DNA of 64,000 nucleotides from Patescibacteria group bacterium. GTDB taxonomy: Bacteria > Patescibacteriota > Minisyncoccia > Moranbacterales > GWC2-37-73. The stretch lies in the NCBI GenBank assembly GCA_022709565.1, contig JAKLIO010000001.1, positions 4,368 through 68,367 of the forward strand. The letters run 5' to 3'. Positions 22,687 through 22,882 of this stretch are shown here, piece after piece; within the stretch, counting starts at the first letter, position 1; each line of letters opens with the position of its first letter. Under the pieces are notes generated by a model, which saw only the letters and a program-made list of their open reading frames with translations, was not told where the DNA came from and searched no databases. Position numbers and translations under genes: made by a program.

Positions 22687-22745
22687 AGATTTATATTTTG
22701 TTAATTGTTAATAGTTTTGACCTTTTCGTGCTACTTGTATTCTAT

Positions 22746-22756
22746 CCCCCCCCCCC
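22746..22756. repeat. homopolymeric C11 (G11 on the coding strand of the downstream gene)
   Basis: I counted this directly as tctatCCCCCCCCCCCgaca. On the minus strand it reads G11-A-TAGAAT, which places it inside a promoter spacer. Confidence 0.9.
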
Positions 22757-22882
22757 GACACTTTTTGTAATATCAATTTATAATTTTATCAATGTTCACA
22801 CCAAGGGCTTTCGCAAGTTTCTTCAGCATATCTAGCGTCGGATTTTGGTTTTTGACCTGTTCAATTTCGCTGAATGTAAAAC

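Follow-up and report, generated by a model that had tools for sequence, protein, structure and literature searches.

Repeat tracts that set the distance between promoter elements are known from several bacterial genera. The hifA and hifB genes of Haemophilus influenzae carry TA repeats in the spacers of their overlapping promoters, the vlp genes of Mycoplasma hyorhinis have a poly-A spacer, and the fim promoters of Bordetella, which are BvgA-dependent, contain a poly-C tract between the activator site and the -10 element. To our knowledge slippage-driven phase variation is documented almost entirely in cultured, host-associated pathogens; members of the Candidate Phyla Radiation (CPR, Patescibacteria) are very small episymbionts, most of them uncultured, that have few classical regulators. 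The closest counterparts of the locus described here are two promoters of Neisseria meningitidis, namely porA, in which poly-G reportedly lies between the -35 and the -10 (a description attributed to van der Ende et al. 1995, J Bacteriol 177:2475), and opc, in which a poly-C promoter tract is said, after work credited to Sarkari et al. 1994, to give high, intermediate or no expression depending on its length. Genome-wide predictions of intergenic simple sequence repeats of variable number have been made for Neisseria (PMC5084427, where references to the systems named above are given), and homopolymeric tracts have been presented as a general regulatory device of prokaryotes (PMC2831843).

We identified a candidate tract of this kind in the window, by which we mean the whole stretch of DNA analysed here (64,000 nucleotides). 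Read on the minus strand the region runs ATTGATA-TTACAA-AAAGTGTC-GGGGGGGGGGG-A-TAGAAT-ACAAGTAGC, with an ATG 52 nt 3′ of the -10. A homopolymer of eleven Gs (22746..22756, minus strand; C11 on the plus strand) is separated by a single A at 22745 from the -10 hexamer TAGAAT (22739..22744, minus strand), and AAAGTGTC, G11 and this A together make up a promoter spacer of 20 nt (22745..22764, minus strand) that reaches to the -35-like hexamer TTACAA (22765..22770, minus strand); the spacer measures 19 nt if the tract is G10 and 21 nt if it is G12. The first-pass annotation had placed G11 in a promoter spacer with TAGAAT as the adjoining -10 and TTACAA 20 nt off, and every coordinate was confirmed. 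Its remark that long G/C homopolymers are otherwise absent also holds, since G11 is the only one longer than 6 in the 64 kb window, where 0.0013 G/C runs of 11 or more would be expected at 38.3 % GC.

Measured against the sigma-70-type arrangement (TTGnnn, 16-18 nt, TAnnnT) the window copy has both hexamers, but a spacing of 19-21 nt and TTA in the -35, and for these two reasons a consensus promoter scan omitted it. That scan did return a plus-strand match overlapping the C-run (CCGACA/18 nt/TATAAT), which was dismissed because nothing but an antisense tRNA lies downstream. The top promoter-like sites in the window have spacers of 16-18 nt, often with G-rich bases directly 5′ of the -10, and TAGAAT is the -10 variant at other promoter-like sites as well. 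The suggestion that TAGAAT follows a GGGG-TAGAAT style shared by promoters of the window was upheld in part. Three sites of the form GGGG(T)-TAGAAT or GGGG-TAAAAT do lie 5′ of other genes (48988-48979, 53427-53417 and 43544-43535), and GGGG-TAGAAT at 48988 and GGGGT-TAGAAT at 53427 have a TTG-type -35 16-17 nt away; the bare pattern GGGTANAAT is however only weakly enriched in the window, with 5 occurrences against 2.1 expected and 7 of 100 shuffles reaching 5.

The gene downstream (21643..22686, minus strand) encodes a hydrophilic protein of 347 amino acids, which had been described at first reading as acidic and proves to be mildly so (ORF 22686-21643, pI 5.25). Candidatus Moranbacteria MAGs (CPR/Patescibacteria) encode a hypothetical protein that matches it at 100 % identity, and the family to which it belongs is large, modular and mostly confined to CPR bacteria. 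Searches of Pfam, PHROGs, PADLOC and NCBIfam gave no match for the protein, and a profile search retrieved 1,909 family representatives at E ≤ 0.001, modular and without annotation. In this family a conserved N-terminus is combined with a helical domain, with a small beta domain of SH3-like type and, towards the C-terminus, with a helical motif that is repeated. An AlphaFold model built from 9 sequences was mediocre (pLDDT 66, pTM 0.33), and Foldseek against the PDB returned nothing at E ≤ 0.001, the best match being to the SH3-like beta domain at E ~0.05. No signal peptide was found in the 347-aa protein, and its sequence is that of a cytoplasmic-looking product, atypical for a phase-variable surface protein. 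The orthologues are under purifying selection (dN/dS 0.10-0.30). A phage or plasmid origin was considered and rejected, as there was no IMG/VR relative, no exact flank match in viral contigs and no tblastn match in phage and plasmid collections; homologues are also located among ordinary chromosomal genes. One homologue, P0004, comes from a contig of an assembly labelled Dehalococcoidia (L014, GCA_018725385.1) and has its N-terminal half tandemly duplicated (residues ~1-175 twice); the contig is 1.7 kb long and was binned to a MAG outside the CPR, and this is probably an artefact of assembly or binning.

Between the -10 and the start codon lies an A-rich leader (AAAAGGTCAAAA.TATTAACAATTAACAAAATATAAATCT-ATG; 22687..22738, minus strand) in which a Shine-Dalgarno sequence is not obvious. 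The homologues of L016/L022-L027 have nearly the same leader (22687-22730 in the window), although the proteins share only 44 % identity, and the leader and N-terminus thus seem to have been conserved more strongly than other parts of the gene. The leader is predicted to be unstructured, with an MFE of -0.4 kcal/mol (z = +1.9, less structured than shuffles). A structured RNA at the locus was rejected on this ground and because the Rfam matches there are tRNAs only.

An exact-protein look-up in ENA, JGI, NCBI and Logan recovered ten contigs of the same Candidatus Moranbacteria strain, the window being an eleventh assembly. These contigs align to the window over 1.3-9 kb each, and the 47,134 aligned bases contain no substitution and four single-base length differences, all of which fall at the G tract. 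G11 is found in the window, L001, L003 and L007-L010, G10 in L004 and L005, and G12 in L002 and L006; all 17 control homopolymers in the same aligned stretch (A/T runs of 7-8 and G6) are invariant. The first-pass annotation had named an invariant tract as an outcome that would defeat its proposal, and what we find is G10, G11 and G12 among otherwise 100 % identical assemblies, a pattern which is what a hypermutable repeat would be predicted to leave.

These lengths are assembly consensus calls of a G10-12 run, which is error-prone in short-read assemblies, and the tract could in principle be real but stable, with G10, G11 and G12 arising from sequencing or assembly error. Long G/C runs are prone to miscounting by Illumina chemistry and in library PCR, most assemblies read G11, the coverage of L004 is low (~4.8x; cov 4.77 in the contig name), and the variant lengths are confined to two possibly non-independent pairs, in that L004/L005 (G10) and L002/L006 (G12) may each stem from one sample. 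We nevertheless consider such an error quite unlikely as the source of the differences: both variant lengths recur in a second contig that was built separately (G10 in contigs of 8,694 and 8,573 nt, G12 in contigs of 14,235 and 5,687 nt), G12 is an expansion and so runs against the bias of PCR stutter towards contraction, and the orthologous site in relatives carries G8, G9 and G9, which shows that the tract changes over short evolutionary distances. A two-colour Illumina poly-G or assembly artefact was rejected as the origin of the tract itself, which is internal to contigs in eleven assemblies from four sources and is present at the orthologous site in relatives.

Upstream regions of homologues (44-93 % protein identity) were recovered and aligned, the homologue scans yielding 4 loci from metagenomes and 2 partial relatives from genomes. 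Both hexamers, -35 and -10, have been retained in at least six related lineages while the surrounding sequence drifts. At the position of TTACAA the relatives have TTGCAA, TTGCGA or TTGTAA, and TAGAAT aligns with their TAAAAT or TAAACT, the columns T-A-n-A-n-T being invariant; it is this conservation that points to a promoter. After TTGCAA, L028-30 have AAAGTGTC and G9 before TAAAAT (17 nt), L011 has AAATAGTC and G8 before TAAAAT (16 nt), L013 has AAAGTTC and G9 before TAAACT (16 nt), and L015/L031 have AAAGTTC and an interrupted GGTTTGGGGG before TAAACT (17 nt). Tract-less spacers of 17 nt between TTGCGA and TAAACT occur in L016/L022-27 and one of 16 nt between TTGTAA and TAAAAT in L021. The window strain, with TTACAA, AAAGTGTC plus G10-12 plus A, and TAGAAT, has spacers of 19-21 nt only, and 16-17 nt is found only in the other lineages. 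The comparison of tract length in related genomes which had been proposed at first reading has thus returned G8-G9 at the same place and a spacing of 16-17 nt. With a TTG-type -35 and a TAnnnT -10 at that distance the relatives fit a sigma-70-type promoter, and the non-G and G parts of their spacers offset one another (8+8, 7+9, 8+9, 7+10), a compensation which indicates that the 16-17 nt spacing is under selection.

Uninterrupted tracts of at least 8 Gs have been kept in two clades that are dS ~0.75-0.88 apart and whose flanking leaders have accumulated substitutions and indels; under neutrality, ~0.002 would be expected for eight sites left unchanged at that divergence. L013 and L031 differ in the tract (G9 vs GGTTTGGGGG) yet have a gene dS of 0. 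Because the pure tract persists over the larger distance and changes over the smallest, it would seem to be both maintained and fast-changing, like classical contingency loci. The promoter region does not differ among six assemblies of the tract-less L022 lineage, nor does the tract among the three assemblies of the G9 relative (L028-30), and upstream of the more distant paralogues P0021 and P0015 a G-tract is absent. Judging from these alignments, we take the tract to be a genuine repeat that is unstable, is conserved in the lineage and lies within a conserved sigma-70-type promoter spacer.

G-rich bases 5′ of the -10 recur in the window and, without a long tract, in relatives (GAGGG-TAAAAT in L012, GGGG-TAAACT in L018), and one might accordingly regard the G-run as a sequence or structure element, either a regulator site or a G-rich extended -10 that dispenses with the -35, rather than as a ruler of the spacer. 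The recurring cases however carry 3-4 Gs only, distant orthologues without any G-run keep their -35 at 16-17 nt, and a single G11 run cannot form an intramolecular G-quadruplex, all of which makes this a very improbable account of the tract. L018, another CPR contig, also has at 221-234 a G8 followed by TAAATA, ~100 nt 5′ of its GGGG-TAAACT and a partial homologue, which hints that G-runs beside -10-like hexamers recur in such genomes. A G9 in L019 forms the arm of a hairpin after a tRNA and was set aside as unrelated to the promoter tract.

The tract is present in spacer position, is polymorphic within the strain and is conserved in related lineages, as are the promoter elements on either side of it. 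Slipped-strand mispairing at the G:C run during replication would lead to the gain or loss of single G:C pairs; the altered tract length would in turn change the distance between -35 and -10 and with it the strength of the sigma-70-type promoter predicted to drive the 347-aa gene, as a volume control or an on-off switch. A hypermutable promoter-spacer tract is probable, and on balance we lean towards reading the G-run as a slippage-prone repeat that sets spacer length, and hence promoter strength, in the manner of porA and opc. A transcription start at this promoter, an effect of tract length on it, reversibility of the changes and any adaptive value are inferred. Three of the features that mark a contingency locus of the promoter-spacer type, namely a tract of ~8 or more G/C, a position between -35 and -10 and polymorphism with conserved flanks, are found here; as to alleles for both expression states, lengths giving the presumed ON spacing of 16-17 nt are confined to other lineages. 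MutS and MutL were absent among the large ORFs tested in the window.

Relatives hold the spacing at 16-17 nt with G8-G9, this strain having expanded to G10-G12 (19-21 nt), and loss of 2-4 Gs would return it to the spacing of its relatives. A spacing of 19-21 nt predicts a weak or silent promoter, and that of this strain is likely to be in a low or off state. The phase-variable switch put forward by the first-pass annotation gains from the location in the spacer of a conserved promoter and from the G10-G12 polymorphism, and loses from strain lengths that all give 19-21 nt, from the weaker TTACAA, from the truncation of the surrounding cassette and from a product unlike the usual phase-variable surface proteins; the observed lengths suggest either the low/off state or a promoter in decay.

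The second of these possibilities is tied to the neighbourhood of the gene. In gene orientation the order is a promoter-like site, tRNA-Ser(tga), a remnant of a helix-turn-helix (HTH) regulator gene, 14 nt, the G11 promoter, the 347-aa gene, a terminator-like hairpin and tRNA-Ser(gct). The promoter-like site (TTTACA/17 nt/TG-TATCAT; 23012..23040, minus strand) is a consensus match only, lies 5′ of tRNA-Ser(tga) and may be a source of read-through. tRNA-Ser(tga) (22884..22971, minus strand) is on the same strand as the 347-aa gene, and its 3′ end abuts the 3′ remnant of an XRE-type HTH gene (22771..22883, minus strand), which retains 36 codons and the stop but no start codon and is intact in relatives, where it encodes 69 aa; the break in the gene falls where it shares a CCGCCA microhomology with the 3′ end of the tRNA. 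On its downstream side the 347-aa gene is followed by the terminator-like hairpin with its T-run (21520..21535, minus strand), the right-arm remnant of long inverted repeats (21451..21620, minus strand), whose left arm is missing in the window, and tRNA-Ser(gct) (21345..21432, minus strand), the downstream bound of the cassette remnant. In relatives the HTH gene, the poly-G promoter and a 351-aa gene form a 1.55-kb segment adjoining tRNA-Ser genes and bracketed by long inverted repeats, which in L028 span 3248-3527 and 5079-5358 (280 nt, 100 % complementary) and in L011 span 1-112 and 1661-1772 (at least 112 nt, 99 % complementary). This segment could be an invertible or mobile cassette.

Fusion of the cassette to tRNA-Ser(tga), leading to read-through, or dispensability of the gene may have relaxed selection and let the G-run expand and the -35 decay, in which case the tract would be a hypermutable by-product of a decaying promoter and its length variation neutral, not a switch. 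Read-through from the tRNA could make the native promoter dispensable, so that the expansion of the tract could be neutral decay: there is no terminator-like site between tRNA-Ser(tga) and the 347-aa gene, the first one occurring at 21535, and the promoter-like site stands 5′ of the tRNA. Consistent with decay are the spacer of 19-21 nt in all eleven assemblies vs 16-17 nt in all relatives, the -35 TTACAA in place of the relatives' TTGCAA (TTG having decayed to TTA), the cut HTH gene, the lost left arm, and the frequency in the window of GGG(G) beside the -10, from which a short G-run could simply have expanded. The 347-aa ORF is however intact and identical in all eleven assemblies, TAGAAT serves other promoters of the window, and relatives with intact cassettes keep a pure G8-G9 which neutral sequence should lose at dS ~0.8. 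Neutral decay is in our estimation possible but doubtful, and we retain the spacer-setting, slippage-prone repeat as the preferred reading.

Three of the Logan contigs, L007, L008 and L010 (SRR30949868, SRR30949882 and SRR30949877), carry the same 1.4-kb module, 100 % identical. Their positions 1-26 read AGTTAAAAGTTCTAGACCGATGACGC and stand to the left of CCGCCA, a place taken in the window by the body of tRNA-Ser(tga) (CCGCCA at 22884-22889); these 26 nt are absent from the window. This left flank indicates an alternative junction or a co-existing arrangement, which probably arose via the CCGCCA microhomology.

Further elements were observed in the window. An integrated element occupies ~14724-21362 at the 3′ end of tRNA-Ser(gct), and its boundary is marked by a direct repeat of this tRNA end (82 %; 14724-14756). 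Among its genes are those for a large serine recombinase (19876-21465), the ORF of which crosses the tRNA-Ser(gct) gene on the opposite strand, a rolling-circle Rep protein (19101-19835), a DUF2726 protein and an Rv1352-domain protein, together with a defence gene of the PD-Lambda-1 type (14950-16218; E = 5e-151). The 3′ end of tRNA-Arg(gcg) (23836-23860) is repeated 156 nt downstream at 23992-24016 with 92 % identity, which looks like the attachment-site scar of another integration event, and a 22-nt palindrome follows this repeat at 24052-24087. Two adjacent paralogous phosphoribosylglycinamide synthetase genes (PurD-like, GARS) lie on the minus strand at 49859-51211 and 51447-52775.

If the proposed role is correct, the poly-G tract, conserved and polymorphic in length within its promoter spacer, would mean that CPR bacteria also use mutational bet-hedging, and it would flag a widespread, uncharacterised protein family as being under fluctuating selection; if the variation is neutral or technical, the tract would be an ordinary unstable homopolymer. 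A more far-reaching proposal, which we offer tentatively and regard as unlikely, is that no simple-sequence contingency locus had been recognised in the CPR before this one. It would consist of a poly-G dial selected across several Moranbacteria-related lineages, situated in a small cassette of HTH regulator plus effector that lies beside tRNA-Ser genes and is flanked on both sides by perfect inverted repeats of 280 nt, and it would stochastically tune a modular CPR-specific protein, possibly one acting in host or phage interaction, and perhaps also be flipped by inversion.

Our literature search found no report of phase variation, or of mapped promoters, in CPR, Patescibacteria or Saccharibacteria. 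Among the described systems porA is like this locus in having a G homopolymer of ~9-11 nt in a sigma-70-type spacer whose length differs among near-identical strains. Single-base slippage at porA shifts the -35/-10 distance and expression, whereas here that effect is predicted from the sequence. The porA product is moreover an outer-membrane porin of a host-adapted pathogen, whereas the locus in the window encodes a cytoplasmic-looking protein of an uncultured environmental CPR bacterium, and the tract here adjoins the -10 with all lengths seen giving a supra-optimal spacing. The promoter tracts of opc and of the fetA type share with it a C/G homopolymer in the promoter and volume control, and differ in the same respects as porA (organism, product, tract adjoining the -10, supra-optimal spacing); the relation of length to expression is known for opc, in contrast to the sequence-based prediction made here. 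In hifA/hifB, vlp and fim a repeat tract likewise sets the spacing of promoter elements and is altered by slipped-strand mispairing, but the repeat unit or base is another and the loci encode fimbriae or surface lipoproteins; Bordetella fim in addition needs the activator BvgA, whereas a plain -35 is conserved here. The tract falls into the same in-silico class as those of the Neisseria repeat survey (PMC5084427) and of PMC2831843, that of intergenic promoter-proximal homopolymers varying among strains, although both are surveys of cultured species. As the one site that differs among eleven otherwise identical assemblies, the G tract is a credible slippage-driven expression dial of a known kind, in a lineage without a reported case.
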